Shown: in pieces, positions 12,519-31,458 of the stretch | Numbering within the stretch: the stretch's first letter is position 1 | How the letters are laid out: every line of letters starts with the position of its first letter | IMG/VR virus record: IMGVR_UViG_2534681704_000006 | Source of the DNA: a virus | Lineage: Duplodnaviria > Heunggongvirae > Uroviricota > Caudoviricetes | DNA: 31,458 nucleotides | Reading direction: 5' to 3' (one strand) | Notes under the pieces: generated by a model | Database searches by the model: none | Told to the model about the DNA's origin: nothing | Seen by the model: only the letters and a program-made list of their open reading frames with translations | Translations under genes and position numbers: made by a program

Positions 12519-12537
12519 AAGAGGGGGTTATTAAGGC

Positions 12538-13500: not shown

Positions 13501-13512
13501 TTAAAGGAAAAG

Positions 13513-13541: not shown

Positions 13542-13598
13542 TTTAAATGTTGGAATCGCAACGTAGTTATTATCATATAACAGCTTGTTTCCTGATTT

Positions 13599-13630
13599 AG
13601 CCAGCCTCCCCAAAGGCTGGTCTTTTTCTA
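13599..13630 (+). terminator. tR'-like intrinsic terminator downstream of Q (end of 6S-type leader RNA)
   Basis: Hairpin CCAGCCT-CCCCAA-AGGCTGG followed by TCTTTTTCT. Confidence 0.55.
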
Positions 13631-13655
13631 ATAAGTATTATTTCGGGTAGGGATT

Positions 13656-14180: not shown

Positions 14181-14372
14181 AATAAATCCTGTACTTTTGA
14201 TAGTTGAGAGTAAGTATGAAAGATAGATGATTACGACCGATCACTTAAAGAACTTTCATACTATATTAGGAATAGTCCATAACAGAAAAATTGTCAGTGA
14301 TGACGCCAGAAAGGCAATTTATTCCGTGCACTACACAGTTTATGTGTTAATGAATTAGTCAAGGGGGAGAAT

Positions 14373-15332
14373 ATGATAAAAAAACCTGTGATTGGAATCA
14401 GCGGTTGTTTGGCCGGTTCTGCTGTTCGTTTTGATGGTGGTCACAAAAGAGCTGACTTTTTAATGGACAAATTAGTGGAATGGGTAACATTCAGACCAGT
14501 ATGTCCGGAAATGGCTATAGGGCTGCCAGTTCCGCGTCCTGCTCTACGTCTTGTGCGCTCGATGCAAGGAAATATACGGATGTGTTTCAGCCACGACCAG
14601 AATGAGGATGTGACAGAGAGAATGACAGAGTTTAGTCGTTCTTATATGGACAAATTAAAGGATGTATCGGGGTTTGTGGTTTGTGCTAAATCTCCCAGCT
14701 GTGGCATGGAGCGCGTGCGTGTCTATGATGAAAATGGTAATCGAGGTCGTAAAGATGGAGTGGGACTATTTACGAGCACTTTGATGGAAAAGTTTTCCTG
14801 GCTACCGGTTGAAGAGGATGGGCGATTACATGATCCAGTGCTTCGTGAGAATTTTGTTGAAAGAGTTTTTGCTTTGCATGAGCTCAATCACCTTTACAAG
14901 GAGAAATTATCAAGAAGAGAGTTATTAGCTTTTCATAGTCGTTATAAGCTTCAGTTGTTGGCGCATAGTCAGGCAGGCTATAAAGATATGGGACCATTTG
15001 TGGCTGCAATACACGAGTGGGCGGACCTTGAATCATACTTTGAGGTGTATCGTGATAAGCTGATGGCGATTCTCAGAAAACCTGCATCACGTAAAAATCA
15101 CACGAATGTGCTGATGCATATACAGGGGTATTTTAGTAACTACTTAAGTACACGCCAGCGTAAAGAGTTGAGCGAGGTTATACTTAACTATCGTTCTGGC
15201 ACATTACCTCTTCTTGCGCCGTTGACTCTGCTGAAGCATTATCTGGGTGAGTATCCTAATGATTACTTGCTTACACAGAATTACTTCGATCCCTATCCGG
15301 ACGAACTGGCTCTAAGACTGATGGTAAATTAA
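14373..15332 (+). CDS. DUF523/DUF1722 fusion protein (TudS-like [4Fe-4S] desulfidase-type N-domain)
   Basis: 319-aa ORF; N-terminal GISGCLAGSAVRFDGGHK motif with further conserved Cys residues, typical of DUF523; C-terminal half resembles DUF1722 (YbgA-like); domain assignment from memory. Confidence 0.65.
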   Translation: MIKKPVIGISGCLAGSAVRFDGGHKRADFLMDKLVEWVTFRPVCPEMAIGLPVPRPALRLVRSMQGNIRMCFSHDQNEDVTERMTEFSRSYMDKLKDVSGFVVCAKSPSCGMERVRVYDENGNRGRKDGVGLFTSTLMEKFSWLPVEEDGRLHDPVLRENFVERVFALHELNHLYKEKLSRRELLAFHSRYKLQLLAHSQAGYKDMGPFVAAIHEWADLESYFEVYRDKLMAILRKPASRKNHTNVLMHIQGYFSNYLSTRQRKELSEVILNYRSGTLPLLAPLTLLKHYLGEYPNDYLLTQNYFDPYPDELALRLMVN

Positions 15333-15674
15333 TTGTATGCGATATCATCCAAAAGGATGAGTTCCTGCATGCAGGATATTTACAATCGTAAAAACTACAC
15401 TATGATACCCAGAGTGTCAGTTTGTATAAAAACTCTGTTTACGCTGAAGAAACAATTGAGATGCAACTTAAAGTTGGTAAACATGCCAGTCAAAATATAT
15501 AATATTATGATTCCACGCAGCTATATATAATATAACAGATTGGTTTAATAATTTGTCTTTGTGAGTTAAATACATAATTTTATACTTGTGATGCAATGAA
15601 ATTTTCCTTATTGTTGAACTGGCGAATATTGATTTTCCACCTATACTTACCTGGTGTAACCCCAATGATATCAG

Positions 15675-16415
15675 GTGGATAATATGCCATACATATGTTC
15701 TATCATTTTGGTGTTGAACTCGTTTGATGTCCGAATTGGTAAAGAAGATATTTTGTTTAAAAAAGGAAGTGCTGTTCTCATTGATTACAATTTAAAAGAT
15801 TTTTTTTCATCAAATATAGATCATGTAATGATCGTAGATGTTGAAGAGAAAACAGTTAATGATTTCTTTAAAAGCAACACACTCTCACCTTTTTCTGTAA
15901 GAAGGTTTTATCCGGCATACTTGATGGTGGAATGTGAAGATTTTTCATTGTTAAAGAACTTGATTGCATGCTTGAATTGTGATGGCAGAACTGTGGATTT
16001 TGTTAGAAATCAAATATCACTTGCATGTCTTGCTATCTTATCTTCAGAGAAAATAGTGCAAAGTTTTTTATTTGGATGTCTTAATAGTTTAGGAAGTAAA
16101 GTTAAGGCTATTATTCACACGGATATATCTGCAGCATGGAGACTTTGTGATATATCTTCAAGACTGTATCTGAGTGAAAGTCTGTTAAAAAGAAAATTAA
16201 AGCACGAAGGCTTATCATTTAGTAAGTTAATTCTTGAAGAGCGAATGGTGATGGCGGAAAGGTTATTAAGCTACAATTTATATTCTGTTGGAAAAGTTGC
16301 TGAGATATGCGGTTATGAAAACACGTCATATTTTGTAAGTGTTTTCAGAAGGTATTTTGGTGTTCCTCCCCATCAATATTCATCAAGATTTTTTTTAGAA
16401 AAAGACATGATGTAA
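15675..16415 (+). CDS. AraC/XylS-family transcriptional regulator (AT-rich, AppY/GadX-like architecture)
   Basis: 246-aa ORF with C-terminal dual HTH AraC signature (...LKHEGLSFSKLILEERMVMAERLL...VGKVAEICGYENTSYFVSVFRRYFGVPP); very AT-rich gene and flanks. Confidence 0.8.
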   Translation: MDNMPYICSIILVLNSFDVRIGKEDILFKKGSAVLIDYNLKDFFSSNIDHVMIVDVEEKTVNDFFKSNTLSPFSVRRFYPAYLMVECEDFSLLKNLIACLNCDGRTVDFVRNQISLACLAILSSEKIVQSFLFGCLNSLGSKVKAIIHTDISAAWRLCDISSRLYLSESLLKRKLKHEGLSFSKLILEERMVMAERLLSYNLYSVGKVAEICGYENTSYFVSVFRRYFGVPPHQYSSRFFLEKDMM

Positions 16416-16602
16416 CGTGATGCGTTTTAATGATTTTGTAATTTTCGTATTTGATAATTGTATGATGCTTTCAGCTACGCCAGAATAATCGCGGCGTTTT
16501 TCTTTTTGAATAGATGTTCAAGCCTTACGCTAATGTAACTTCTATACCTTTCCTCTTCGTTCCGAACCGTGTACACCATCCGTTATTTGCGGAGGTGAGG
16601 CT

Positions 16603-16818
16603 ATGAAATCCATGGATAAGTTAACAACGGGTGTCGCCTATGGCACCTCAGCAGGTAGTGCCGGTTACTGGTTTTTACAGCTGCTCGATAAAGTCACGCC
16701 CTCACAGTGGGCAGCAATAGGTGTGCTGGGTAGCCTGGTATTTGGCCTGCTGACGTACCTGACAAACCTTTATTTCAAGATTAAAGAAGATAAGCGCAAG
16801 GCTGCGAGAGGTGAATAA
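16603..16818 (+). CDS. S: class II holin, phage 21 S-type (pinholin) with dual start motif MKSM
   Basis: 71-aa product [31 protein letters not shown]...[13 protein letters not shown] matches recalled S21 holin/antiholin. Confidence 0.9.
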
Positions 16819-17315
16819 TGCCTCCATCATTACGAAAAGCCGTTGCTGCTGCTATTGGTGGCGGAGCAATTGCTATAGCATCAGTGTTAATCACTGGCCC
16901 AAGTGGTAACGATGGTCTGGAAGGTGTCAGCTACATACCATACAAAGATATCGTTGGCGTATGGACTGTATGTCACGGGCATACAGGAAAAGACATCATT
17001 CCCGGTAAAACGTATACCGAAGCAGAATGCAAAGCCCTCCTGAATAAAGACCTTGCCACGGTAGCCAGACAAATTAACCCGTACATCAAAGTCGATATAC
17101 CGGAAACAACGCGCGGCGCTCTTTACTCGTTCGTCTATAACGTGGGCGCAGGCAATTTCAGAACATCTACTCTTCTTCGCAAAATAAACCAGGGCGATAT
17201 CAAGGGCGCATGTGACCAGCTACGTCGCTGGGCATACGCTGGCGGTAAGCAATGGAAAGGCCTGATGACTCGTCGTGAGATTGAGCGTGAGGTCTGTTTG
17301 TGGGGGCAACAATGA
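16818..17315 (+). CDS. R: SAR endolysin (lysozyme, R21/RrrD-like)
   Basis: 165-aa product; Gly/Ala-rich N-terminal signal-arrest-release segment ([18 protein letters not shown]); catalytic E-x8-D-x5-T spacing ([17 protein letters not shown]); start overlaps holin stop. Confidence 0.9.
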
Positions 17316-17776
17316 GCAGGGTAACCGCGATTATCTCCGCTCTGGTTATCTGCATCATCGTCTGCCTGTCATGGGCTGTTAATCATTACCGTGATAACGC
17401 CATTACCTACAAAGCCCAGCGCGACAAAAATGCCAGAGAACTGAAGCTGGCGAACGCGGCAATTACTGACATGCAGATGCGTCAGCGTGATGTTGCTGCG
17501 CTCGATGCAAAATACACGAAGGAGTTAGCTGATGCGAAAGCTGAAAATGATGCTCTGCGTGATGATGTTGCCGCTGGTCGTCGTCGGTTGCACATCAAAG
17601 CAGTCTGTCAGTCAGTGCGTGAAGCCACCACCGCCTCCGGCGTGGATAATGCAGCCTCCCCCCGACTGGCAGACACCGCTGAACGGGATTATTTCACCCT
17701 CCGGGAACGACTGGTAATGATGCAGGCCCAACTTGAAGGTGCTCAGCAATACATAACCGAGCAGTGTTTAAAGTAA
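17312..17776 (+). CDS. Rz: Rz inner-membrane spanin
   Basis: 154-aa product with N-terminal transmembrane segment and coiled-coil; overlaps endolysin stop; contains the embedded Rz1 frame. Confidence 0.85.
17532..17717 (+). CDS. Rz1: Rz1 outer-membrane lipoprotein spanin (embedded in Rz, +1 frame)
   Basis: 61-aa ORF with lipobox (VVGC) and proline-rich body ([15 protein letters not shown]), fully embedded within Rz. Confidence 0.8.
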
Positions 17777-17913
17777 AATCTTAACTACAATATGATTCAT
17801 TTTGATGATTGTTTCATAAGGAACAGTGAAGTAAGATCTAAGAGGAGTTAAATTTTATACAGTATAATCATAATATTGCAGCAAGGTGGTTATAATTGAA
17901 AGAATATTTAGAT

Positions 17914-19371
17914 ATGAATACATCTCATGTAAGAGTTGTTACTCATATGTGTGGGTTCCTGGTTTGGCTCTATAGTCTTTCAATGTTGCCACCAATGGTT
18001 GTAGCATTGTTTTATAAAGAAAAAAGCCTGTTCGTTTTCTTTATAACTTTCGTTATATTTTTTTGCATTGGTGGCGGAGCGTGGTATACAACTAAGAAAT
18101 CTGGCATTCAATTACGTACCCGTGATGGGTTTATTATAATTGTAATGTTTTGGATTTTGTTTTCTGTTATTAGTGCATTCCCTTTATGGATTGACTCAGA
18201 ACTTAATTTAACGTTCATTGATGCTCTGTTTGAAGGGGTTTCTGGAATAACAACAACAGGAGCAACTGTAATTGATGATGTTAGTTCATTACCTCGGGCA
18301 TATTTGTACTATCGGTCACAGTTAAATTTTATAGGTGGTTTAGGAGTTATTGTTCTGGCGGTTGCTGTATTGCCATTATTGGGTATTGGTGGTACAAAGC
18401 TTTATCAGTCAGAAATGCCGGGGCCATTTAAGGATGACAAACTCACTCCCCGCCTGGCCGATACGTCACGGACACTGTGGATAACTTATTCTTTATTAGG
18501 TATTGCTTGTATTGTCTGTTATAGACTTGCAGGAATGCCTTTGTTTGATGCTATTTGTCACGGGATTTCCACAGTTTCGCTTGGTGGTTTCTCAACTCAT
18601 AGCGAGAGTATCGGATATTTTAATAACTATTTGGTTGAGCTGGTGGCTGGTTCTTTTTCCCTGCTATCGGCTTTCAACTTCACTCTTTGGTATATTGTTA
18701 TTAGCAGGAAAACGATAAAACCTTTAATCAGAGATATTGAACTTCGTTTCTTTCTGTTAATAGCCTTAGGGGTGATCATTGTTACCTCTTTCCAGGTCTG
18801 GCATATAGGTATGTATGACTTGCATGGAAGTTTTATTCATTCGTTTTTTCTTGCCAGCTCCATGCTCACTGATAATGGTTTAGCTACGCAGGATTATGCA
18901 AACTGGCCCACGCACACGATAGTGTTTTTGCTGTCGTCAAGTTTCTTTGGGGGATGTATAGGTTCAACTTGTGGTGGAATTAAGTCACTTCGATTTCTTA
19001 TACTTTTCAAACAAAGCAAACACGAGATAAATCAGCTTTCTCATCCCAGAGCGTTGTTGAGTGTAAATGTAGGAGGGAAGATAGTTACAGATCGTGTAAT
19101 GAGGTCTGTATGGAGTTTCTTTTTTCTTTATACTCTCTTCACGGTGTTTTTTATACTGGTGTTAAATGGTATGGGATATGATTTTCTTACATCATTTGCA
19201 ACAGTGGCTGCATGTATTAATAATATGGGATTAGGTTTTGGGGCTACTGCATCGTCATTCGGAGTGCTTAATGACATTGCAAAATATTTAATGTGCATAG
19301 CTATGATTCTTGGTCGCCTTGAAATTTATCCTGTTATTATATTGTTTTCAGGTTTTTTTTGGCGCTCCTAA
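17914..19371 (+). CDS. trkG: TrkG potassium uptake protein (TrkH family)
   Basis: 485-aa multi-pass membrane protein from MNTSHVRVVTHMCGFLVWLYSLSMLPPMVVALFYKEK...; matches recalled Rac-prophage TrkG; AT-rich. Confidence 0.92.
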   Translation: MNTSHVRVVTHMCGFLVWLYSLSMLPPMVVALFYKEKSLFVFFITFVIFFCIGGGAWYTTKKSGIQLRTRDGFIIIVMFWILFSVISAFPLWIDSELNLTFIDALFEGVSGITTTGATVIDDVSSLPRAYLYYRSQLNFIGGLGVIVLAVAVLPLLGIGGTKLYQSEMPGPFKDDKLTPRLADTSRTLWITYSLLGIACIVCYRLAGMPLFDAICHGISTVSLGGFSTHSESIGYFNNYLVELVAGSFSLLSAFNFTLWYIVISRKTIKPLIRDIELRFFLLIALGVIIVTSFQVWHIGMYDLHGSFIHSFFLASSMLTDNGLATQDYANWPTHTIVFLLSSSFFGGCIGSTCGGIKSLRFLILFKQSKHEINQLSHPRALLSVNVGGKIVTDRVMRSVWSFFFLYTLFTVFFILVLNGMGYDFLTSFATVAACINNMGLGFGATASSFGVLNDIAKYLMCIAMILGRLEIYPVIILFSGFFWRS

Positions 19372-19508
19372 TATATGGCTGATTTATAATTGTGAGTTTA
19401 ATATTATATTGACTCACTCATTGATCCAATACCTAACTTTACCAGCAACACCTCCGCCCCCAGTAGCACTGGCTGCTGGGGTGCGTTTTATTCATAAAGC
19501 AAGGCTGT

Positions 19509-20297
19509 ATGAGCGAGAAATTAAAGATAGTCTATCGCCCATTACAAGAATTGTCACCGTATGCGCACAACGCCAGGACGCACAGTACTGAGCAGGTGGC
19601 ACAACTGGTAGAAAGTATTAAGCAATTCGGCTGGACTAATCCGGTGCTGATTGACGAAAAGGGCGAAATTATTGCGGGTCACGGTCGTGTTATGGCGGCT
19701 GAAATGCTCAAAATGGATTCTGTTCCGGTCATTGTTCTGTCTGGCCTGACGGATGAGCAGAAAAAGGCGTACCGCCTGGCAGATAATCGCCTACCGATGA
19801 ATGCTGGCTGGGATGAAGATCTGTTGCGGATGGAGCTGTCGGACCTAATCAATGCTGATTTTGATGTCTCCCTGACAGGCTTCGGCCCGACAGAAATTGA
19901 TGAACTGTTGACGGATGTTTTGCCCGGTACAGGAAATAAGGAGGAGCCGTATACGACGAAAATTGATACGCCTGTTTATGAGCCGTCGGGCGGTAAACCG
20001 GATATCAGTGAACTGTACGACGATACGAAAACTCAGGAGCTGATCAGCCGGATACGTTCGGCGTCCCTTGAGCCTGATATTGAGAAATTCCTCCTGTGTG
20101 CGGCAGAACGTCACACGGTGTTTAATTTCAGCAGAATTGCGGACTATTACGCTCATGCCCCCGCTGAAATTCAGTGCCTTTTCGAGGAGTCGGCGCTGGT
20201 GATCATTGATTATCAGCAGGCTATTGAAAATGGATTTGTCCGAATGACGCAGCGCATGGTGGCGATCATGCATAGCGGGGAGGAGGAATATGCGTGA
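19509..20297 (+). CDS. ParB-like nuclease domain protein (YnaK-like)
   Basis: 262-aa ORF; N-terminus (YRPLQELSPYAHNARTHS...IIAGHGRVMAA) has ParB/Srx-type motifs; resembles recalled Rac YnaK but full length here. Confidence 0.75.
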   Translation: MSEKLKIVYRPLQELSPYAHNARTHSTEQVAQLVESIKQFGWTNPVLIDEKGEIIAGHGRVMAAEMLKMDSVPVIVLSGLTDEQKKAYRLADNRLPMNAGWDEDLLRMELSDLINADFDVSLTGFGPTEIDELLTDVLPGTGNKEEPYTTKIDTPVYEPSGGKPDISELYDDTKTQELISRIRSASLEPDIEKFLLCAAERHTVFNFSRIADYYAHAPAEIQCLFEESALVIIDYQQAIENGFVRMTQRMVAIMHSGEEEYA

Positions 20298-21153
20298 TGA
20301 TTTTTGCGCCTTTATTCTGACTCACGGGCGACCGGACAAAGTTCTGACTTACCGGACGTTGCGTCGTGCTGGCTATACCGGGAAAATTTTTATCGTTGTT
20401 GATGATGAAGATAAGACACGGCATCAGTACATGGCTGAATTTGGTGAACAGGTGCTGGTATTTTCCAAAGCAGATATTGCCAGTCGTTTTGACGAAGCCG
20501 ATAATTTTGGTGACCGCCGCTCAATTTTTTACGCCCGTAATGCCTGTTTCGACCTGGCAAAACTGGTCGGGTGTAAATACTTCATTCAGCTCGATGATGA
20601 TTATCACGAGTTCCAGTTTCGGGTGGATCGCAACTATGACCAGGCCTATTTCCCGATAAGGAAACTGGATGCGATCCTTTCTGAAATGCTGGCGTATTAC
20701 GAATCAATACCCGCGCTTTCCATCGCTATGTCGCAGGGCGGGGATTTTCTTGGTGACAATGGCGGCCATGCTTCGTGGGTGAAACGCAAGGCAATGAACA
20801 GCTTTATCTGTTCGGTTGATCGACCGTTCTCATTCATGGGGCGCATTAACGAGGATGTGAATACGTACACGAATCTCGGTCGCCGTGGTGAATTGTTTAT
20901 GACGATCGGTGCTGTCCAGTTAGGGCAGAAACAGACGTAGAAAAACAGCGGCGGAATGACCGAGCTGTATCTGGATTCCGGGACCTACGTTAAAAGTTTT
21001 TATTCCGTCATGTATGCGCCGTCGTGCGTAAAAATCTCACTGATGGGCGCCAGCCATAAACGCATTCACCATCAGGTCACCTGGAACAACGCTGCAGTAA
21101 AAATCCTTCACGAAAAATACAGGAAGAAGACACCCTGCATATTAATGGGGTGA
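20290..21153 (+). pseudogene. YdaY-like gene interrupted by a single in-frame TAG (20938..20940); possible DxD-type transferase
   Basis: ORFs 20290..20940 and 20956..21153 are in the same frame, separated only by TAG plus 5 codons; 8-nt overlap with upstream ParB-like gene; contains DDD motifs (VVDDEDK, QLDDDYHEF). Confidence 0.5.
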
Positions 21154-21156
21154 CAA

Positions 21157-21408
21157 ATGATTCCGTATTCGAAAGTCGAGTCTCTGGCAGCGTGCCGGAT
21201 GACTGCACAACAAATCGCTGACGTACTGGATGTTGATCTGAACCGACTGAAAGAAAATCGGGAAGCAATGACAAATTTTTACGCGTCCATCCGTAAGGGC
21301 AGAGCGAAAGGTGAAGCCGAGCTACGGGCGGCATTGTTTAAGCTTGCCAGAAAAGGGGATGCCTTTGCCCTGCGCGAACTACTCAGGGTGGATAAAAATC
21401 AGGACTAA
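21157..21408 (+). CDS. small hypothetical protein upstream of terminase
   Basis: 83-aa ORF tightly packed between the interrupted gene and terS; no recognised family. Confidence 0.45.
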   Translation: MIPYSKVESLAACRMTAQQIADVLDVDLNRLKENREAMTNFYASIRKGRAKGEAELRAALFKLARKGDAFALRELLRVDKNQD

Positions 21409-21411
21409 CTG

Positions 21412-22506
21412 ATGAGCAGACCGGACTGGGGGGCGTTGCAGCAGGAGTATATTGCTGAATACACCCGCTCCGGTATATCTCCGGTGGCATGGTGTGAAGC
21501 AAGGGGACTGAATTACGCAACAGCCCGTCGTTACATCAAAAAACCTCCGAAAAATGCGCAGACAGAAATGCGCAAAACTGCGCAAAAAAGTGCGCAGAAA
21601 AAATCTGCGCAGACTGCACAAAAGCGGAACGGAAAATCTCAGGAAAAAAAGCCAGTATCCGATGCGTACCTGAATGAGGGCGATGCGGAAGAAATTTCGT
21701 TCTGTCCCGATGAATTCGGCGTTTCTGACCAGCAGGCGAAATTCGCAATGCTGGTTGCCCAGGGGAAAAAACTCGTTGAGGCATATCGCCTGGCAGGATA
21801 CGAGTCAGAGGGGAATGCGGCCTACGTAACCGCCAGCCAGCTCCTAAGAAATCCTAAGGTTTTTCGTGCTATCAGCTACTTCCGCAATCAGTACCAGAAA
21901 CGCTATACCGCAGACCTGGATTTACTGGTGAGTCAGTTGATGGCCATTGTCCAGGCCGACCCCAATCAGTTGGCACAATTTCGCCGTGTTAACTGCCGTT
22001 ATTGCTGGGGCGAGAATCATCACTACCAGTGGCGCGATATAGCAGAATTCGATAAGGCAGCGGCGCAGGCCTCCAGAGATGGCAAACCCGAGCCGGAATA
22101 TGGTGGCCTTGGCTTTGTTGATAACGCCATACCCAATCCGGACTGCCCGAAGTGCTGCGGTGAGGGAACGGGGCAGCTTTATATGGCTGATACCACTCTG
22201 CTTGATGGGGATGCGCGGCAATTATATGCAGGGGCAAAGCTCGGAAAATTTGGTGTTGAGATCCTGCTGGAGGATAAGGCTGCCGCCCGGCGTGAATTGT
22301 TGCGTTTGCTTGCTGCTGGCGGGGCTTTATGTGCAGATAAGCGGCTACAGGAACTGGAAATTGAACGGCGCAGAATGGAAAACCAGAAGCTGCGCAAAGA
22401 GATCGAAACGGTGGAGGATAATGAACATCCCCAACCTGTTGCGATCAATATTAATGTGGTTGATGCCAGAGTAAGGAGTGATGAAGATGATCTCTCCGAC
22501 GCTTAA
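21412..22506 (+). CDS. terS: terminase small subunit (TerS)
   Basis: 364-aa ORF directly upstream of and overlapping the terL-like ORF; N-terminal HTH-like segment and central terminase-small-like region (KFAMLVAQGKKLVEAYRLAGYESEGNAAYVTASQLLRNPKV). Confidence 0.65.
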   Translation: MSRPDWGALQQEYIAEYTRSGISPVAWCEARGLNYATARRYIKKPPKNAQTEMRKTAQKSAQKKSAQTAQKRNGKSQEKKPVSDAYLNEGDAEEISFCPDEFGVSDQQAKFAMLVAQGKKLVEAYRLAGYESEGNAAYVTASQLLRNPKVFRAISYFRNQYQKRYTADLDLLVSQLMAIVQADPNQLAQFRRVNCRYCWGENHHYQWRDIAEFDKAAAQASRDGKPEPEYGGLGFVDNAIPNPDCPKCCGEGTGQLYMADTTLLDGDARQLYAGAKLGKFGVEILLEDKAAARRELLRLLAAGGALCADKRLQELEIERRRMENQKLRKEIETVEDNEHPQPVAININVVDARVRSDEDDLSDA

Positions 22507-23281
22507 TGTGCCTCAGGCGCGATTTCTTTCAATGCCCCACAAATTTAAAGCCTATGTCGCTGGTTTTGGCTCGGGTAAAACATGGATTGGGTGTGGTGGC
22601 ATATGCAAGGGGATTTGGGAACATCCTGGTATAAATCAGGGATATTTTGCGCCAACGTATCCCCAAATTCGCGATATTTTTTACCCTACAGTGGAAGAAG
22701 TTGCTGCTGACTGGGGATTGAATGTAAAAATTAATGAGGGAAATAAAGAGGTTCATTTTTATTACGGACGTCAGTATCGGGGAACCACTATCTGCAGATC
22801 GATGGAGAAGCCGCAAACGATCGTCGGTTTCAAAATTGGTAATGCGCTGGTGGATGAACTGGACATTTTGCCGAAGGAAAAAGCCAGAACAGCGTGGCGC
22901 AAGATAATTGCGCGTATGCGTTATAAGGTTGATGGACTTCGCAACGGTATTGACGTTACAACCACGCCGGAAGGATTCAAATTTGTCTACGAGCAGTTTG
23001 TTAAAGCCGTGCGTGAAAAAACAGAGCTGGCCTCACTGTATGGTCTGGTGCAGGCATCTACTTTCGATAATGAAAAGAACCTGCCAGCAGATTACATTCC
23101 TTCGCTTCTTGAGTCATACCCTCCAGAGCTGATTAAAGCCTATCTTCGAGGACAGTTTACTAACCTGACAAGTGGTACTGTTTACCATCAGTTTGACCGG
23201 AAACTGAATAATTGCGAAGAAGTGGAGCAGCCAACCGCGCTGCTATTAACAGCATGTTTACCAGGCTCTCCGGAGAGCTGA
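22478..23281 (+). pseudogene. terL: terminase large subunit, N-terminal ATPase fragment only
   Basis: Walker A (VAGFGSGKTW) and Walker B (ALVDELD) motifs; ORF ends after 267 aa where the frame changes into a head-morphogenesis-like fragment; nuclease domain absent. Confidence 0.65.
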
Positions 23282-24000
23282 ACGAGCTGGCAGTTTATGA
23301 GGCTGGTTATCAGTTAAGTCTGTTTGATTCTCTGCTACCTGATTTTGTTGCTGATGTTCACCCTCTGGTTGGTATCTCACCTGATGCACTTTATGCCGCG
23401 GCAATGGCGCGACCATTCCAGGGACGACTGCTCAGTGAGTGGGCCTCAGATCTTGAGGCGGATCGGCTCAGACGCATAACAAATACGGTGCGTCAGGGTT
23501 TTTTGTTGGGGGATACCAATGAGCAGATCGCAAGAAAAATTCGGGGACATGTCAGTAAGGGATTTCAGGATGGTGCATTGCAGATGAGCCGGGCTAATGC
23601 GGCCAGCATTGCAAAAACAGCGGTTGGACATCTTGCTGCTACTGCCCGTGAGAGTTTTGCCAGCGCGAATAATGATTTGATTAAGGGTAAGCAATGGTTA
23701 TCAACGCTTGATAATCGTACTACGCCACAATGTCGAATCAGGGATCGCCTCAAATATACGCTGAATAATAAACCTGTAGGTCACAGCGTGCCTTATTTGC
23801 AGGGGCCGGGAAAAATTCATTTCTGCTGCCGCTCAACGGAAACGTTCATTCTGAAATCAGCGAAGGAACTGGGTATTGATGTTCGTGATATTTCCCCGGC
23901 TGAGCGGGCCAGCATGGATGGCGTGGTGGCCGGAGATACAACCTACAGGGAATGGTTTTTGCGTCAGCCTTACACCAGACAAAAACAGATTGTGGGGGAA
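23212..24000 (+). pseudogene. head morphogenesis protein fragment (SPP1 gp7 / Mu F-like)
   Basis: ORF without plausible start or ribosome-binding site in a different frame from terL; residues resemble minor head morphogenesis family (assignment from memory, moderate); runs into J-homologous sequence. Confidence 0.45.
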
Positions 24001-25829
24001 ATCCGGTCAGCGTGGAGGTTCAGTCCGTCACCGACGGCGTGAAGGTGAAAGTGAGCCGTGTTCCTGACGGCGTTGCCGGATACAGCGTGTGGGGGCTGAA
24101 GCTGCCGACGCTGCGCCAGCGCCTGTTCCGCTGTGTGAGTATCCGTGAGAACGACGACGGCACGTATGCCATCACTGCCGTGCAGCATGTGCCGGAAAAA
24201 GAGGCCATCGTGGATAACGGAGCGCACTTTGACGGCGACCAGAGCGGCACGGTGAATGGTGTCACGCCGCCAGCGGTGCAGCACCTGACCGCAGAAGTCA
24301 CCGCAGACAGTGGGGAGTATCAGGTGCTGGCGCGCTGGGACACGCCGAAGGTGGTGAAGGGTGTGAGCTTTATGCTTCGCCTGACCGTGGCCGCCGATGA
24401 CGGCAGTGAGCGGCTGGTCAGCACGGCCCGGACGACGGAAACCACTTACCGCTTCAGGCAGCTGGCGCTGGGGCGTTACACGCTGACGGTCCGGGCGGTA
24501 AATGCCCGGGGACAGCAGGGCGATCCGGCGTCGGTATCGTTCCGGATTGCCGCCCCGGCAGCGCCGTCGCGGATTGAGCTGACGCCGGGCTATTTTCAGA
24601 TAACTGCCACGCCGCATCTTGCGGTTTATGATCCGACGGTACAGTTTGAGTTCTGGTTCTCGGAAACGCGGATTACCGATATCAGGCAGGTTGAAACCAC
24701 AGCCCGCTACCTTGGCACGGGGCTGTACTGGATAGCCGCCAGTATCAATATCAAACCGGGCCATGATTATTACTTTTATATCCGCAGTGTGAACACCGTT
24801 GGCAAATCGGCATTCGTGGAGGCCGTCGGTCGGGCGAGCGATGATGCGGAAGGTTACCTGGATTTTTTCAAAGGCAAGATAACCGAATCCCATCTCGGTA
24901 AAGAGCTGCTGGAAAAAGTTGATCTGACGGAGGATAACGCCAGCAGACTGGATGAGTTTTCGAAAGAGTGGAAGGACGCTAACGATAAATGGAATGCCAT
25001 GTGGGGCGTCAAAATTGAGCAGACCAAAGACGGCAAACATTATGTCGCGGGTATTGGCCTCAGCATGGAGGACACGGAGGAAGGCAAGCTGAGCCAGTTT
25101 CTGGTTGCCGCTAACCGTATCGCGTTTATTGACCCGGCAAACGGGAATGAAACGCCGATGTTTGTGGCGCAGGGCAACCAGATATTCATGAACGACGTGT
25201 TCCTGAAGCGCCTGACAGCCCCCACCATTACCAGCGGTGGCAGTCCTCCGGTATTTTCCCTGACATCAGACGGAAAGCTGACCGCTAAAAATGCGGATAT
25301 CAGTGGTAGTGTGAATGCGAACTCAGGAACGCTCAACAATGTCACGATTAACCAGAACTGTACGATTAAGGGCATGCTGGAGGCGACCCAGGTCAGAGGG
25401 GATTTCGTTAAAGCTGTATCAAAAGCCTTCCCGAAAAAAGTCGGTACGTGGGGTAACACGGAAACACCAAACGGTACGGTTACAGTCACCATCAGCGATG
25501 ATCATAACTTTGACCGCCAGATTATTATTCCGCCCATTATTTTTAACGGTATAGCGTATGACGATCCGGGGAGCGGAAATAACCCAGGAGGCACGCGATA
25601 CACGGGTTATGGTTTTGAAGTTCGCAAAAACGGCGTATTAATCGCATCCAGAGAAACTAAAGGGGCCATTCCCGGTAGTTACAGTGCAGTTATTGATATG
25701 CCTAGTGGTGGTGGTAGCGTCACTCTGGAGTTTAAGATTTTCCAGAAAGGCAATCAGGGGGCAGGCAATATCACCGACTGTACGGTGATTGTGACCAAAA
25801 AAGCCGCTTCCGGCATCAGTATTCGTTGA
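24001..25829 (+). pseudogene. J: tail tip fibre / host specificity protein J, C-terminal half only
   Basis: From about 24001 the translation ([43 protein letters not shown]...) matches the C-terminal part of recalled lambda J; no N-terminal half upstream. Confidence 0.85.
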
Positions 25830-25850
25830 AATTGTTATAACCCATATAAG

Positions 25851-25878
25851 GGCACCAGAAATGGTGCCTTTTTTATTG
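25851..25878 (+). terminator. intrinsic terminator after J
   Basis: Hairpin GGCACCAGAAATGGTGCC followed by TTTTTTATT. Confidence 0.7.
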
Positions 25879-25898
25879 CAGAAAAGCGAGAGGTAATT

Positions 25899-26498
25899 AT
25901 GCGTAAACTTTATGCCGCCATTTTGTCCGCAGCCATTTGTCTGGCCGTATCAGGTGCGCCTGCATGGGCGTCTGAACATCAGTCCACGCTGAGCGCGGGG
26001 TATCTTCATGCCTCGACGAACGTTCCCGGCAGCGATGATCTGAACGGGATTAACGTGAAATACCGTTATGAGTTTACGGACACACTGGGGATGGTGACGT
26101 CATTCAGCTATGCAGGAGACAAGAATCGCCAGCTGACTCATTACAGCGATACCCGCTGGCATGAAGATTCCGTTCGTAACCGCTGGTTCAGCGTAATGGC
26201 GGGGCCGTCTGTGCGCGTGAATGAATGGTTCAGCGCGTATGCGATGGCGGGTGTGGCTTACAGCCGTGTGTCGACTTTCTCCGGGGATTATCTCCGCGTA
26301 ACTGACAACAAGGGGAAAACGCACGATGTGCTGACCGGAAGTGATGACGGTCGCCACAGCAACACGTCTCTGGCGTGGGGAGCTGGCGTGCAGTTTAACC
26401 CGATCGAATCCGTGGCCATTGATATTGCTTATGAAGGCTCCGGCAGTGGCGACTGGCGCACTGACGGTTTCATCGTGGGTGTCGGTTATAAGTTCTGA
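25899..26498 (+). CDS. lom: Lom outer-membrane protein (Ail/PagC/OmpX family)
   Basis: 199-aa product with signal peptide and beta-barrel C-terminal YKF, in lambda position between J and stf. Confidence 0.9.
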   Translation: MRKLYAAILSAAICLAVSGAPAWASEHQSTLSAGYLHASTNVPGSDDLNGINVKYRYEFTDTLGMVTSFSYAGDKNRQLTHYSDTRWHEDSVRNRWFSVMAGPSVRVNEWFSAYAMAGVAYSRVSTFSGDYLRVTDNKGKTHDVLTGSDDGRHSNTSLAWGAGVQFNPIESVAIDIAYEGSGSGDWRTDGFIVGVGYKF

Positions 26499-26523
26499 TT
26501 AGCCAGGTAACACAGTGTTATGA

Positions 26524-26552
26524 CAGCCCGCCGGTTCAGGCGGGCTTTTTTG
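26524..26552 (+). terminator. intrinsic terminator after lom
   Basis: Hairpin AGCCCGCC-GGTTCA-GGCGGGCT followed by TTTTTTGTGG. Confidence 0.7.
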
Positions 26553-26562
26553 TGGGGTGAAT

Positions 26563-29400
26563 ATGGCAGTAAAAATTTCAGGTGTACTGAAAGACGGCAC
26601 AGGAAAACCGGTACAGAACTGCACAATCCAGCTGAAAGCAAAACGTAACAGTACCACGGTGGTGGTGAACACGCTGGCATCTGAAAATCCGGATGAAGCC
26701 GGGCGTTACAGTATGGACGTTGAGTACGGTCAGTACAGCGTTATTCTGTTGGTGGAAGGATTCCCGCCGTCACATGCCGGGACCATCACAGTGTATGAAG
26801 ATTCCCGACCCGGTACGCTGAATGATTTTCTCGGTGCCATGACGGAGGATGATGCCCGTCCGGAGGCACTGCGCCGTTTTGAGCTGATGGTGGAAGAGGT
26901 GGCGCGTAACGCGTCCGTGGTGGCACAGAACACGGCAGCCGCGAAGAAGTCAGCCAGTGATGCCAGCACATCAGCCCGTGAGGCGGCAACCCATGCGACT
27001 GATGCTGCAGGCTCAGCACGCGCAGCCAGCACGTCAGCCGGACAGGCCGCGTCGTCGGCTCAGTCAGCGACTTCCAGCGCAGGAACGGCATTAACAAAGG
27101 CCACTGAAGCATCAAAAAGTGCTGCCGCTGCAGAGTCCTCAAAAAGCGCGGCAGCTACCAGTGCCAGTGCCGCGAAAACGTCAGAAACGAATGCTGCAGC
27201 GTCACAACAATCAGCAGCCACTTCTGCATCCACCGCGACTACGAAAGCGTCAGAAGCTGCCACCTCAGCCCGGGATGCGGCGGCTTCAAAAGAGGCGGCA
27301 AAATCATCAGAAACGAACGCATCCTCGAGCGCCAGTAGCGCAGCTTCCTCGGCAACAGCGGCAGGAAATTCCGCGAAGGCGGCAAAAACGTCCGAGACGA
27401 ACGCTAAGTCTTCTGAAACAGCAGCGGGACAGAGCGCCTCAGCTGCGGCAGGTTCAAAAACAGCGGCTGCGTCGTCTGCCAGTGCTGCGTCAACAAGTGC
27501 CGGGCAGGCCTCAGCCAGTGCCACCGCTGCCGGAAAATCGGCAGAAAGCGCCGCATCATCCGCTTCAACAGCCACAACGAAGGCTGGCGAAGCCACTGAG
27601 CAAGCCACTGCAGCAGCGAGGTCTGCTTCTGCAGCAAAAACCTCTGAAACAAATGCAAAGACTTCAGCAGACAATGCTGCTTCCTCTAAGGCGGCAGCCG
27701 CATCGTCCGCTGGTTCAGCGGCGTCATCGGCATCATCTGCGTCTGCTTCAAAAGATGAGGCGACCAGACAAGCGTCAGCAGCGAAAGGTAGTGCCACGAC
27801 AGCAACAACGAAAGCATCAGAGGCGGCAGGCAGTGCGACGGCTGCATCTCAGAGCAAAGTTGCTGCTGAATCCGCGGCAACGCGTGCCGAAACAGCGGCA
27901 AAACGGGCAGAGGATATTGCTGATGCCGTATCTCTGGAAGATGCGAGTACGACGAAAAAAGGTGTGGTTCAGCTCAGTAGCGCCACTAACAGCCCGTCTG
28001 AAACGCTGGCTGCGACACCAAAAGCGGTTAAGGCGGTAATGGATGAAACGAACAAGAAAGCGCCCTTAAATAGTCCTGCACTGACCGGAACGCCAACAAC
28101 GCCAACTGCGCCAAAAGGTACTAATAATACTCAGATCGCAAGTACGGCTTATGTGATGGCCGCGATTGCCGCCCTTGTAGACTCGTCGCCTGACGCACTG
28201 AATACGCTGAACGAGTTAGCGGCGGCGCTGGGCAACGACCCGAATTTTGCGACCACCATGACTAACGCGCTTGCGGGTAAGCAACCGAAAGATGCCACCC
28301 TGACGGCGCTGGCCGGGCTTGCTACTGCGGCAGACAGGTTTCCGTATTTTACGGGGAATGATGTCGCCAGCCTGGCAACCCTGACAAAAGTCGGGCGGGA
28401 TATTCTTGCGAAATCGACCGTTGCTGCCGTTATCGAATACCTCGGTTTACAGGAAACGGTAAATCAGGCTTCTGGCGCATTACAGAAAAACCAGAACGGC
28501 GCAGATATTCCGGGAAAAGATACCTTCACCAAAAACATTGGTGCCTGCCGCGCATATAGCGCATGGCTGAATATTGGTGGCGATAGTCAGGTCTGGACAA
28601 CTGCGCAATTTATTTCGTGGCTGGAGAGTCAGGGGGCATTTAACCATCCTTACTGGATGTGCAAAGGCTCATGGGCTTATGCAAATAATAAGGTTATTAC
28701 AGATACAGGTTGCGGAAATATTTGTCTTGCAGGTGCTGTGGTGGAAGTTATTGGCACTCGCGGCGCAATGACCATACGCGTTACTACGCCGAGCACGTCC
28801 AGCGGTGGCGGAATTACTAACGCTCAATTCACTTATATTAATCATGGTGATGCTTACGCTCCTGGCTGGCGACGAGACTACAACACGAAAAACCAGCAGC
28901 CTGCATTTGCTTTAGGGCAAACAGGAAGCAGGGTCGCAAATGATAAAGCTGTTGGCTGGAACTGGAATAGCGGTGTTTATGATGCAGATATCAGTGGTGC
29001 ATCGACATTAATCCTCCACTTCAATATGAATGCGGGGAGTTGCCCTGCTGTACAGTTCCGCGTGAATTACAGGAACGGCGGTATTTTTTATCGTTCAGCG
29101 CGTGATGGTTATGGCTTTGAAGCTAACTGGTCAGAGTTTTACACCACAACACGCAAACCCTCTGCGGGGGATGTTGGTGCATATACGCAGGCAGAATGTA
29201 ACTCAAGGTTTATTACAGGTATTCGCCTTGGCGGTCTGTCATCTGTTCAGACATGGAAAGGCCCCGGCTGGTCTGACAGGTCAGGTTATGTCGTTACGGG
29301 TTCAGTTAACGGAAACCGTGATGAATTAATTGATACAACTCAGGCAAGGCCAATTCAGTATTGCATTAATGGGACGTGGTATAACGCGGGGAGTATTTAA
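26563..29400 (+). CDS. stf: side tail fibre protein Stf (lambda-like N-terminus, Ala/Ser-rich repeats, variable C-terminus)
   Basis: 945-aa product from MAVKISGVLKDGTGKPVQNCTIQLKA... matching recalled lambda/Rac Stf N-terminus; gix-like site at 28430..28455 divides constant from variable part. Confidence 0.9.
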   Translation: MAVKISGVLKDGTGKPVQNCTIQLKAKRNSTTVVVNTLASENPDEAGRYSMDVEYGQYSVILLVEGFPPSHAGTITVYEDSRPGTLNDFLGAMTEDDARPEALRRFELMVEEVARNASVVAQNTAAAKKSASDASTSAREAATHATDAAGSARAASTSAGQAASSAQSATSSAGTALTKATEASKSAAAAESSKSAAATSASAAKTSETNAAASQQSAATSASTATTKASEAATSARDAAASKEAAKSSETNASSSASSAASSATAAGNSAKAAKTSETNAKSSETAAGQSASAAAGSKTAAASSASAASTSAGQASASATAAGKSAESAASSASTATTKAGEATEQATAAARSASAAKTSETNAKTSADNAASSKAAAASSAGSAASSASSASASKDEATRQASAAKGSATTATTKASEAAGSATAASQSKVAAESAATRAETAAKRAEDIADAVSLEDASTTKKGVVQLSSATNSPSETLAATPKAVKAVMDETNKKAPLNSPALTGTPTTPTAPKGTNNTQIASTAYVMAAIAALVDSSPDALNTLNELAAALGNDPNFATTMTNALAGKQPKDATLTALAGLATAADRFPYFTGNDVASLATLTKVGRDILAKSTVAAVIEYLGLQETVNQASGALQKNQNGADIPGKDTFTKNIGACRAYSAWLNIGGDSQVWTTAQFISWLESQGAFNHPYWMCKGSWAYANNKVITDTGCGNICLAGAVVEVIGTRGAMTIRVTTPSTSSGGGITNAQFTYINHGDAYAPGWRRDYNTKNQQPAFALGQTGSRVANDKAVGWNWNSGVYDADISGASTLILHFNMNAGSCPAVQFRVNYRNGGIFYRSARDGYGFEANWSEFYTTTRKPSAGDVGAYTQAECNSRFITGIRLGGLSSVQTWKGPGWSDRSGYVVTGSVNGNRDELIDTTQARPIQYCINGTWYNAGSI
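26920..27900 (+). repeat. low-complexity Ala/Ser/Thr-rich repetitive coding region within stf (KTSETNA-type repeats)
   Basis: Repeated peptide motifs (AAKTSETNA, SSASAAS) and GC-rich DNA; source of several overlapping alternative-frame ORFs in the track. Confidence 0.7.
28430..28455. other. gix/pix/cix-like 26-bp site-specific inversion crossover site (TTATCGAATACC TC GGTTTACAGGAA)
   Basis: Right half and centre match the recalled Mu gix site (TTATCCAAAACCTCGGTTTACAGGAA); lies in the conserved EYLGL coding segment of stf. Confidence 0.7.
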
Positions 29401-29402
29401 CG

Positions 29403-29936
29403 ATGATGCACTTAAAAAACATTACTGCTGGCAACCCTAAAACAAAAGAGCAATACCAGCTAACAAAGCAATTTAACATCAAATGGCTTTATTCAGATGA
29501 TGGAAAAAACTGGTATGAGGAACAAAAGAATTTCCAGCCAGACACTTTGAAAATGGTCTATGACCATAACGGCGTTATTATTTGTATTGAAAAGGATGTT
29601 TCAGCAATTAATCCAGAGGGTGCAAGCGTCGTTGAATTACCTGATATTACAGCAAATCGCCGGGCTGATATTTCGGGGAAATGGATGTTCAAAGATGGCG
29701 TAGTGATAAAGCGAACTTATACCGAGGAAGAGCAGAGGCAACAAGCGGAAAATGAAAAGCAAAGCCTGTTGCAACTTGTCAGGGATAAAACCCAGCTATG
29801 GGACTCACAGCTACGGCTGGGCATCATTTCCGACGAGAATAAACAAAAATTAACCGAGTGGATGCTCTATGCGCAGAAAGTCGAATCTACAGACACTTCC
29901 GGCCTGCCAGTAACGTTTCCCGAACAACCAGAATGA
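29403..29936 (+). CDS. tfa: tail fibre assembly protein Tfa
   Basis: 177-aa product [40 protein letters not shown]... typical Tfa/U family, immediately after stf. Confidence 0.85.
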   Translation: MMHLKNITAGNPKTKEQYQLTKQFNIKWLYSDDGKNWYEEQKNFQPDTLKMVYDHNGVIICIEKDVSAINPEGASVVELPDITANRRADISGKWMFKDGVVIKRTYTEEEQRQQAENEKQSLLQLVRDKTQLWDSQLRLGIISDENKQKLTEWMLYAQKVESTDTSGLPVTFPEQPE

Positions 29937-29939
29937 GAG

Positions 29940-29962
29940 AAGGCCCGCTATCGGGCCTTAAT
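29940..29962. terminator. hairpin shared by the convergent tfa genes (bidirectional terminator candidate)
   Basis: AAGGCCCG-CTAT-CGGGCCTT followed by AATTTTTACT. Confidence 0.5.
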
Positions 29963-29964
29963 TT

Positions 29965-30492
29965 TTACTCTGGTTTTTGTGGCCATTCAGGATTTGCCGT
30001 ATCCACACGGCTGACCAGAACACTGTAGCGTTCCCATGCTTCCAGTCGTGTGCGTTCCTCGTCTGTTGCCATATTCAGCCTGACAGCGCGTTCCAGCGGT
30101 TGGATGACTGATTCAGCTTCGAAAAGCAATGCGGCCTTTTGTGATTCGGCCTGTTGTTGTTGCTCGTCTGCCGTATAAATCCGTTTAACCACAGCTCCGT
30201 CCCTAAACATCCACTTACTGGAATCATCAGCGCAGCGGTTGGCTGTAATATCTGGAACCTCAACGACGCTATAACCTTCAGGGTTAAGCGTGGAGGCATC
30301 TTTGGTGATGGCGACAATAATATTATTTGCATCGTAAACAATCTTTATTGTGTCTGGCTGAAAGTTTTTCACTTCCTCATACCAGTTTTTTCCGTCTTCG
30401 GACCATAACCAGATAACATCAAAATTCTTTGTTAGCTGATATTGTTCTTTTGTTTTTGGATTTCCAGACTTAATATTTTTTAAATGCTGCAT
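29965..30492 (-). CDS. alternative tail fibre assembly protein Tfa' (inverted orientation)
   Basis: 175-aa product [40 protein letters not shown]... paralogous to the + strand Tfa. Confidence 0.85.
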
Positions 30493-30495
30493 AAA

Positions 30496-31458
30496 TTACA
30501 CCTGTACGACGTTATACCATGTGCCATTGATGTATTTTTGTATTGGTCTGAATACTGCCGGATCATCGCCATCAACTGCACCGATAATGCCAAGCCCCGT
30601 AATTGCATGACCTGATTTCTCATACATCACGCCTTTTTGCATAGTCTGAACAACACGTGTACCAAGTCGGACATCTCTCACATAACGTGAGTCAAAATTA
30701 CCATAATTGCCGGGAATAACTTGCGCACCGCAAAGCCAGTTGCCATTGTTGTCCATGTACGCCTGACCATCGGTGCCATTGGCTGTCCTTGAGTTATTAA
30801 TCATGTAGATGCCAAATTGCTTATTCCCCAGTCCACCAATCATAAATTTGCGATCAGCGTGGTCCTGACGAAGTAATGCCTGCGCACCATCGGTGGATAC
30901 CGCATTGCGTCCCAAAATAACATTCTGGTCACGCATATGAATCCACATGCCGGTACTACTGTTAATTGCAAAACGGTTTGCAAATATATCCCCTGTAACA
31001 TCAAGACCATGCCCCATGCTTATCCGACCAGTTCTGAGATTAAGCGTAAAGGGGCGTAGTGGCCCTATATCACCATTTTCTCCCTCATTCTCTCGTGTAG
31101 GGATGATATGCAGGCATTCTTCAGAACGACGAAAAATAGCACCAAAAGATGAATTAAATATCCTCAGTGCATTGACTGTCGATATTTTTACTTCACTGCT
31201 GAAAAGGGCTTTAACAAGGACAGACAAAGCATCCCATTTAAGAGTCATCAGGTCTTTTGTTGTGGTGCTCTGGCGGCTTCTCCATTTGAAATATTCATTG
31301 CCGTTGTCGCCTGTTTCAAACCACATGTATGAATCAGTGTCGCTGTCGGCATTATTTTTAAAACCAATCTTTGCCCAGTCAGTATTTCTAATCCAGGCAA
31401 GGATTGAGTCGTTTTCAAAAGTAAGCCCACCGGACAAGGTATCGCCATTCTTTTGCAC
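30496..31458 (-). CDS. alternative tail fibre C-terminal (variable) segment, 5' end beyond window
   Basis: 320-aa partial ORF running off the window; begins (V)QKNGDTLSGG, paralleling the + strand LQKNQNGADIPG after the crossover site; both end with INGTWYN. Confidence 0.8.
   Translation of the reverse strand: MQKNGDTLSGGLTFENDSILAWIRNTDWAKIGFKNNADSDTDSYMWFETGDNGNEYFKWRSRQSTTTKDLMTLKWDALSVLVKALFSSEVKISTVNALRIFNSSFGAIFRRSEECLHIIPTRENEGENGDIGPLRPFTLNLRTGRISMGHGLDVTGDIFANRFAINSSTGMWIHMRDQNVILGRNAVSTDGAQALLRQDHADRKFMIGGLGNKQFGIYMINNSRTANGTDGQAYMDNNGNWLCGAQVIPGNYGNFDSRYVRDVRLGTRVVQTMQKGVMYEKSGHAITGLGIIGAVDGDDPAVFRPIQKYINGTWYNVVQV

Follow-up and report, generated by a model that had tools for sequence, protein, structure and literature searches.

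Two out-of-frame deletion scars in the virion module of a lambdoid Escherichia coli prophage

The window (the whole stretch of 31,458 nucleotides that was analyzed) contains three adjacent ORFs that resemble parts of terL, a minor head gene, and J. Are these ORFs the remains of larger genes that were cut by deletions, as the original prediction held, or are they full-length proteins of compact families? The joins were compared base by base, in a three-way comparison, with the prophage of E. coli YJ6 (NZ_AP023235.1), which has an intact late module. The element is almost certainly an ordinary decaying lambdoid E. coli prophage. Its late (virion) module is eroded, and its late region is of the Rac type with trkG. 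Two deletions, probably RecA-independent and by illegitimate recombination, removed 15.3 kb from the virion module. The features are listed in Table 1.

Table 1. Coordinates of features in and next to the eroded virion module
Feature	Position	Strand	Basis
terS, small terminase subunit, intact, 364 aa	21412..22506	+	Pfam Terminase_2, PHROG 51
terL remnant, codons 1-249 of 433	22487..23233	+	Terminase_6N; 249-aa prefix identical to YJ6 TerL
Junction 1, scar of the 2,164-bp deletion, out of frame	23233..23234	.	Microhomology of 1 nt, A at 23233
End of the terL remnant, out of frame, TALLLTACLPGSPES + stop, encoded by minor-head-gene DNA	23234..23281	+	
Minor head (Mu F / SPP1 gp7 family) remnant, codons 73 to ~329 of 370	23233..24001	+	Phage_Mu_F, PHROG 241, YJ6 mapping
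Junction 2, scar of the 13,180-bp deletion, out of frame	23997..24006	.	Imperfect 10-nt repeat
J (tip attachment / host specificity) remnant, codons ~528-1137 of 1137	24002..25829	+	Pfam domains, YJ6 mapping
lom, intact, 199 aa	25899..26498	+	Ail_Lom over 1-199 of 199
Side tail fibre gene, stf-like, 947 aa	26557..29400	+	ORF; collinear with YJ6

Gene fragments and the junctions between them

The window and the YJ6 prophage share 14.6 kb in three collinear blocks with 99.87 to 99.97% identity. Window positions 16828-23233 correspond to YJ6 7829-14234, positions 23233-24006 to YJ6 16398-17171, and positions 23997-31458 to YJ6 30342-37803. With 99.9 to 100% nucleotide identity to the reference module, chance is not an issue. 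At least two internal deletions had been proposed. Two suffice, one of 2,164 bp and one of 13,180 bp, when the window is sized against the 99.9% identical YJ6 module.

The terL ORF (22478-23281) is 267 aa long, and ATG 22487 is its likelier start. It is identical (100%) to residues 1-249 of the 433-aa YJ6 TerL. Past residue 249 it contains 15 out-of-frame residues and then a stop. It encodes the N-terminal ATPase part only, as predicted. Terminase_6N (PF03237) was found at residues 26-241 with an E value of 1.5e-33, covering model positions 2-213 of 215, and the Walker A (AGFGSGKT) and Walker B (LVDE) motifs are kept. The RNaseH-like nuclease domain Terminase_6C (PF17289), which sits at residues 255-417 of intact YJ6 TerL, had no match in the terL ORF of the window. 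The window terL is a gene fragment and not a functional member of the large terminases. The terS stretch is 100% identical to YJ6.

The first frame switch had been placed at about 23212..23281, and the exact junction is 23233/23234. Here the 2,164-bp deletion puts terL codon 249 next to minor head codon 73. It took the 3' end of terL, all of the DUF4055 portal gene, and the first 72 minor head codons.

The minor head ORF (23212-24042) corresponds to residues 73 to ~329-331 of the 370-aa YJ6 minor head protein. It matches Phage_Mu_F (PF04233) with an E value of 8.2e-9 and 36.6 bits against a cut-off of 29.6. It also matches PHROG 241 (“head morphogenesis”) with an E value of 1.9e-123, from profile position 80 on. 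These matches agree with its earlier description as a start-less head-morphogenesis-like ORF. The start and first 72 codons of the gene were deleted at one end and the last ~41 codons at the other, and the coding sequence is incomplete. The remnant contains no native start, ribosome-binding site, or native C terminus.

At junction 2, the repeat reads GGAAACCCGG on the left and GGCAATCCGG on the right, with 8 of the 10 positions matching. The crossover lies in the shared AA at 24000-24001, which falls in the interval given for the second frame switch (about 23995..24005). The base at 23999 is that of the left parent, and the base at 24002 is that of the right parent. The 13,180-bp deletion brings minor head codon ~329 up against J codon 528. 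It took the genes for the scaffold, the P22-type capsid, the connectors, the tail tube, the tape measure, and gpM/L/K/I, as well as J up to codon 528.

The J-fragment ORF (23952-25829) encodes residues 528-1137 of the 1137-aa J, and its identification as the C-terminal half of J was correct. It contains strong matches to Ig_J, Ig_J_second, Phage_Tail_Tip, and Ig_GpJ_C (PF24421, PF24489, PF09327, and PF12421). The remnant therefore keeps two Ig-like domains, the tail-tip domain, and the C-terminal receptor-binding domain. By Pfam, the N-terminal, tip-complex-forming domains FNIII-A_GpJ and Phage-tail_3 are absent from the window J ORF. Intact YJ6 J contains them at residues 86-207 and 330-496.

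In YJ6, the missing interval is annotated with terL, the DUF4055 portal, the minor head protein, DUF6651, the P22-type capsid, the tail terminator, the tube, ydaY, the tape measure, M/L/K/I, and J. A tblastn search of all 19 YJ6 late proteins against the whole window retrieved the terL, minor head, and J fragments only; the 16 other structural proteins had no match. This search and Pfam confirm that the portal, capsid, tail tube, tape measure, and J N terminus are absent. Of the genes that survive in part, terL has lost its nuclease domain and J its baseplate-forming half. Lost in full are the portal, scaffold, major capsid protein, connectors, tail tube, tape measure, and gpM/L/K/I. Structural genes were found nowhere else in the window, and the intact homologues of the three ORFs are 433, 370, and 1137 aa long and contain the missing domains. 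That the ORFs are complete members of compact families has next to no probability.

Both joins shift the frame, so that three pseudogene fragments remain and not fusion proteins. The terL, minor head, and J fragments are probably non-functional leftovers. Homologous or “relaxed” recombination between repeats was rejected because the joins share no more than 1 and 2 nt of perfect homology. Homology this short points to illegitimate recombination as the probable mechanism. The breakpoints, the frames, and the gene content are established by the sequence comparisons. No evidence contradicting the deletion reading was met.

The scars in sister contigs and public records

Junction 1 was identical in 10/10 sister contigs, and junction 2 was identical in 9/9 sister contigs long enough to hold it. 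Both junctions were retrieved together, base for base, from 9/9 long-enough independently assembled contigs that are at least 99.99% identical to the window. The scars are thus common to a set of near-identical isolates. Scar-bearing contigs came from at least 10 samples. The sister contigs differ by 0-1 positions in 5-19 kb. The fragment proteins were present on 23-30 contigs, one of which is 878 kb long. Among 5,426 complete E. coli genomes, junction 1, junction 2, and the two together were found 0 times. Because the junctions are shared by independent assemblies and absent from these complete genomes, the scars are genuine and identify a single lineage of recent origin.

An assembly or annotation artefact at the joins is about as improbable as the compact families. 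At least 10 assemblies made independently show the same junctions, and the 878-kb contig carries one fragment protein. Assembly collapse was ruled out because the joins contain no repeat able to collapse and the junctions in the sister contigs are identical.

No single-scar intermediate was retrieved from the 5,426 complete genomes or by exact protein look-up, and successive deletions or a single complex event both fit. The predicted minor head chimera with deletion 2 only was not on record in an exact-sequence look-up, a weak result that depends on identical gene calls.

The value of the locus is foremost in annotation. Public records label the three fragments as ordinary genes, under the names “terminase,” “phage Mu F like family protein,” and “DUF1983 domain-containing protein.” Gene callers predict ORFs of 264, 262, and 605 aa from them. 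PHROG 38319 (“unknown function”) matches the truncated terL end to end, with the out-of-frame tail included. Both base-exact junctions are usable as a lineage marker. The erosion itself is routine for a prophage, and the mechanism and the kind of element are already known. A literature search turned up broad accounts of how prophages decay and of Rac; none described this allele.

Relation to Rac and other lambdoid prophages

Like the window, K-12 Rac has a trkG-bearing late region. The two are 99.3% identical over 2,431 bp (window 17332-19762, rzpR-trkG-ynaK), with 93-97% identity in lom and the 5' portion of stf. K-12 Rac also contains two internal deletions in the virion module and keeps trkG, lom, stf, and tfa. 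Its breakpoints differ entirely from those of the window. One joins ynaK (ParB-like) to ydaY with 11.6 kb lost, and the other joins ynaA (tape measure) to lomR with 8.4 kb lost. K-12 Rac lost terS, all of terL, and all of J, whereas the window keeps these in part.

The early regions also differ. The window encodes lambda-type exo/bet/gam (a YqaJ-type exonuclease, a RecT-family Bet, and Gam), an S24-type peptidase repressor (cI), and lambda O and P. K-12 Rac encodes recE/recT, racR, and ydaS-ydaW. Window positions 1-17331 had no blastn match to K-12 Rac, recET and racR included. The element is not Rac proper, since its early region is unrelated. Judged by its sequence, it is a mosaic lambdoid prophage with a Rac-type late arm.

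The YJ6 prophage has the same late module and keeps both the 2,164-bp and the 13,180-bp blocks. It is itself defective, in a way that complements the window: an IS1 stands in place of the early region equivalent to window 407-16827. The YJ6 integrase adjoins ybhC and not ttcA, and the YJ6 locus was rearranged by IS1. The window contains neither prophage end.

The siphophages vB_EcoS-473R12 and vB_EcoS-666R9 (ON470609 and ON470614) match the window at 96% identity across terS, terL, and Mu F, and both contain the 2,164-bp block (~2.16 kb) that is missing from the window. Because isolated siphophages carry the same module with this block, the intact form is a working virion module. Strain ES2 contains a scar in the same module that joins terL to J, unlike the joins of the window. 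Together, the window, YJ6, K-12 Rac, and ES2 supply independent deletions at different sites within one prophage family, a clean and useful set for the study of virion-module decay.

Retained genes and what the element may still do

The element has lost the terminase nuclease, head, and tail genes and so would be unable, alone, to package DNA or to build heads or tails. The original prediction that it cannot form particles probably stands for the element on its own, and it is valid only where there is no helper prophage. In O157 Sakai, the head and packaging genes of the lambdoid prophages Sp4, Sp9, Sp13, and Sp15 are damaged by deletions, frameshifts, and IS insertions, and experiments showed that co-resident prophages can package these elements in trans (Asadulghani et al. 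2009, PMC2669165). The window resembles these prophages in its damaged head and packaging genes; packaging of its own element in trans would be hypothetical.

A helper-dependent, satellite-like prophage, in which terS steers its own DNA into the capsids of a related co-resident prophage, would accord with this trans-packaging of prophages that lack head or packaging genes (PMC2669165). It would also accord with the full-length ORFs that the window contains for terS, Q, holin, endolysin, spanin, cI, O, and P. We consider it very unlikely. The hallmarks of PICI-like satellites are absent. The 99.9% identity to an intact module, together with out-of-frame joins at 1-2 nt of homology, indicates recent accidental loss.

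The remnant may instead be a selected, domesticated set, in which the deletions disarm the phage yet keep genes useful to the host or for defence (trkG, lom, and stf). A free C-terminal J fragment, or J/stf as a template for incoming lambdoid phages, would maybe be kept too. Three independent scar patterns in the family that remove head and tail-shaft genes and keep trkG, lom, and stf are in its favor. All four C-terminal domains survive in the J fragment, whose ORF has possible ATG/GTG starts that arose at the junction. It is 95-99% identical to J of free phages, e.g., mEp460_ev081 and 434, which suffices for exchange. Exchange of this kind has reportedly been described for defective prophages.

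We nevertheless regard a selected set as improbable, if somewhat less so than a satellite. The scar lineage is so young, by the few differences among sister contigs, that retention says nothing about selection. Both J-fragment starts are unconvincing for want of a good ribosome-binding site: AGGGA directly abuts ATG 23952, and GTG 24012 has a G-rich stretch 12 nt upstream. A fresh nonsense mutation at 20938 in a neighbouring gene and an IS1 in the early operon indicate ongoing decay. There is equally little to expect, as with the satellite, from the idea that the erosion itself was selected. The disarmed element would then still be inducible and lytic, and the J fragment, with Lom and the side fibre, would serve in superinfection exclusion or as a decoy, or as a reservoir from which host-range genes are recombined.

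Erosion without such a role remains the preferred reading, and it leaves several genes whole. The original prediction that terS, the lysis genes, lom, and the tail-fibre switch are retained holds for the genes, which are full length, and for the invertible segment, which flips in sister isolates. It fails for the invertase. The invertase gene adjoins the segment just outside the window. In sister contigs it is reduced to a stub of ~65 codons, and the switch is therefore not self-sufficient. The 3' end of the stf-like gene lies inside the segment. The left crossover site is at ~28440-28468, and the inversion breakpoint relative to L005 is at 28426-28468.

Fragmented genes of the late region

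The window encodes the early and regulatory genes for a YqaJ-type exonuclease, a RecT-family Bet, Gam, SieB, an S24-type repressor, O, P, Dam, RusA and Q. Morons, lysis genes and trkG are present as well. The moron block, between Q and the holin gene, is unusual cargo ahead of the lysis cassette; its genes are named by the Pfam labels of a sister contig (an independently assembled, near-identical contig with the same scars). A run of plus-strand ORFs was surveyed in window 20000-28000 (see the table).

Window features and blocks collinear with E. coli YJ6
Feature	Window	Strand	YJ6	Details
gam	4245-4661			
IS1	~4903-5671	-		inside leftward early operon
DUF2528 gene	5742-6110			
Moron block	13656-16415			Blc-like lipocalin (- strand), 2-thiouracil-desulfurase/DUF1722 gene, AraC-type regulator
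Block 1	16828-23233		7829-14234	99.97% identity
ParB-like gene	19509-20297	+		
TAGT-type glycosyltransferase gene	20290-21153	+		broken
terS	21412-22506	+		364 aa
terL-like ORF	22478-23281	+		267 aa; native residues 1-249 of 433 followed by a 15-residue out-of-frame extension ending in a stop; lacks the Terminase_6C nuclease domain (255-417)
Phage_Mu_F-matching ORF	23212-24042	+		276 aa, frame different from terL-like ORF; native minor head residues 73 to ~329 of 370; start, first 72 and last ~41 residues lost
Block 2	23233-24006		16398-17171	99.87% identity
J C-terminal ORF	23952-25829	+		625 aa, third frame; native residues 528-1137 of 1137; FNIII-A_GpJ and Phage-tail_3 domains lost
Block 3	23997-31458		30342-37803	99.93% identity
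lom	25899-26498	+		
Side tail fibre gene	26557-29400	+		947 aa
Tail-fibre segment	~28426-31458			~3 kb; stf 3' end, tfa, inverted tfa', alternative fibre C-terminus

The 267-aa ORF covers Terminase_6N almost end to end and has no other match. Hits for the 276-aa ORF are Phage_Mu_F and PHROG 241 ("head morphogenesis"), the PHROG alignment starting only at profile position 80. The 625-aa ORF contains the four C-terminal J domains; its alignment to the J family of PHROG begins no earlier than position 269, or 783 in the longer model. The original prediction had described terL cut to its N-terminal ATPase part, a start-less head-morphogenesis-like ORF and the C-terminal half of J, and alignment to the intact proteins bore out all three.

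PHROG 38319 ("unknown function," 271 positions) spans the truncated terL ORF (22487-23281) end to end, including its frameshifted tail. Its source appears to be this pseudogene fragment, or one very like it, and not a genuine protein family.

Breakpoints and consequences of the deletions

The window arrangement was found by megablast in none of 5,426 complete E. coli genomes. Many of them match window 21000-24009 as two pieces, spanning 5,174 bp versus 3,010 bp. The best was E. coli YJ6 (NZ_AP023235.1). Its annotated order is terS, terL (433 aa), a DUF4055 portal (468 aa), a minor head protein (370 aa), a DUF6651 protein, a P22-type major capsid protein, four small proteins, tail terminator, tail tube, ydaY, tape measure, M-, L-, K- and I-like tail proteins, J (1137 aa), lom, stf and tfa. 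Alignment of the window to two joined YJ6 stretches gave three collinear blocks, whose coordinate offsets correspond to deletions of 2,164 bp and 13,180 bp. At least two internal deletions had been predicted; they are now sized, with base-exact breakpoints.

At the terL/minor head junction (junction 1), one A is common to both parents (...CAGCCA/ACCGCG...). At the minor head/J junction (junction 2), the left parent reads GGAAACCCGG, the right parent GGCAATCCGG and the window GGAAATCCGG. Base 23999 is that of the left parent and base 24002 that of the right, placing the crossover within the shared AA at 24000-24001. The reading frame is broken at both junctions, so no fusion protein is made.

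Since perfect homology at the joins is just 1 to 2 nt, illegitimate (RecA-independent, microhomology-level) recombination or replication slippage accounts best for both deletions, and homologous or recombinase-mediated exchange is unlikely. The preferred reading draws on the junction sequences and partly on general knowledge of E. coli deletion formation.

A tblastn search of the whole window with all 19 YJ6 late proteins matched only the TerL, minor head and J fragments. With early and other genes elsewhere, the missing genes are thus absent from the sequenced part of the element, including the portal, capsid, tail tube and tape measure genes predicted to be gone. The element also lacks the terminase nuclease, scaffold and distal tail proteins, and J is halved. 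Isolated siphophages carry the module at 96% identity, with the 2.16-kb block that is missing in the window, which supports the intact module being a working virion module. We infer from the gene loss that the element would not make virions alone. The original prediction stands in both observation and interpretation, with particle loss holding for the element by itself. It may, however, be packaged with a helper's aid, by analogy with O157 prophages deficient in head or packaging functions, for which helper-dependent packaging has been shown (Asadulghani et al., PMC2669165).

The window is a case of ordinary prophage decay. It is very improbable that selection has kept a disarmed yet lysis-competent element or a free J receptor-binding fragment. 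For annotation, the value of the case is that three pseudogene fragments now carry protein names in public records. The scar pair also serves as a lineage marker.

Distribution of the scars

The 264-aa TerL fragment with its frameshifted tail has an exact copy on about 25 public contigs (EFM3790466.1, "terminase"). The 262-aa Mu F fragment (EMX31659.1, E. coli MP021561.2) occurs on 23 contigs; for the 605-aa J fragment (EMX31660.1) there are 30. At least one of these contigs is 878 kb. Ten sister contigs from different samples were compared. Junction 1 was present base for base in 10/10 and junction 2 in all nine that were long enough, with 0 to 1 substitutions relative to the window over 5 to 19 kb. 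The 5,426 complete genomes contain neither junction, and they and an exact protein look-up yielded no intermediate with a single scar. The scars are thus genuine, travel together and mark one very recent lineage or very recently spread element.

The TAGT gene ("GREB1-related," TET-associated-glycosyltransferase-like) sits downstream of the ParB-like gene. It contains a CAG-to-TAG nonsense change at codon 217 (stop 20938-20940); base 20938 is C in YJ6 and strain ES2. The truncated 216-aa call is present in 9/10 sister contigs, making this a further lesion peculiar to the scar lineage. A G-run in its 3' region differs by one G between ES2 and both YJ6 and the window.

Related prophages and other lesions

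The late arm of the window is Rac-type, with 99.3% identity to K-12 Rac over rzpR-trkG-ynaK and 93 to 97% over lom and stf. The early arm resembles that of lambda and has no relation to K-12 Rac. The element is thus a mosaic lambdoid prophage that carries a Rac-type late arm, and not Rac in the strict sense. Relative to YJ6, K-12 Rac has scars at ynaK/ydaY (11.6 kb lost; L014 16630) and at ynaA (a tape-measure fragment)/lomR (8.4 kb lost; L014 18389). In ES2 (L002 9489-9785), terL ends after ~99 codons with J directly next. By sequence comparison, the Rac-type late module shows at least three independent erosion patterns (K-12 Rac, ES2 and the window lineage). Head and tail-shaft genes were repeatedly lost in K-12 Rac and ES2; trkG, lom and stf remain. 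Reviews of "grounded" prophages describe deletion-driven decay of exactly this kind, with Rac incomplete in K-12 and more complete in other strains (PMC6379469).

The IS1 copy lies between gam and the DUF2528 gene. Polar effects on gam/bet/exo and xis/int expression are possible, which would make the insertion a further "grounding" lesion. YJ6 has an intact late arm, but IS1 at the equivalent place has replaced its early genes, everything matching window 407-16827 (16.4 kb).

The tail-fibre segment has the opposite orientation in one sister contig (L005, 10809-13841). Two others stop at or just short of the crossover site, at window 28468 (L011) and 28056 (L006). The crossover sites look gix/pix-like (TTCCTGTAAACCGAGGTTTT...). 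An invertase gene adjoins the segment just beyond the window. In L004 (18972-19270) only ~65 codons of its 5' end remain before a TGA, so inversion in the scar lineage presumably relies on a Pin/Gin-family invertase encoded elsewhere.
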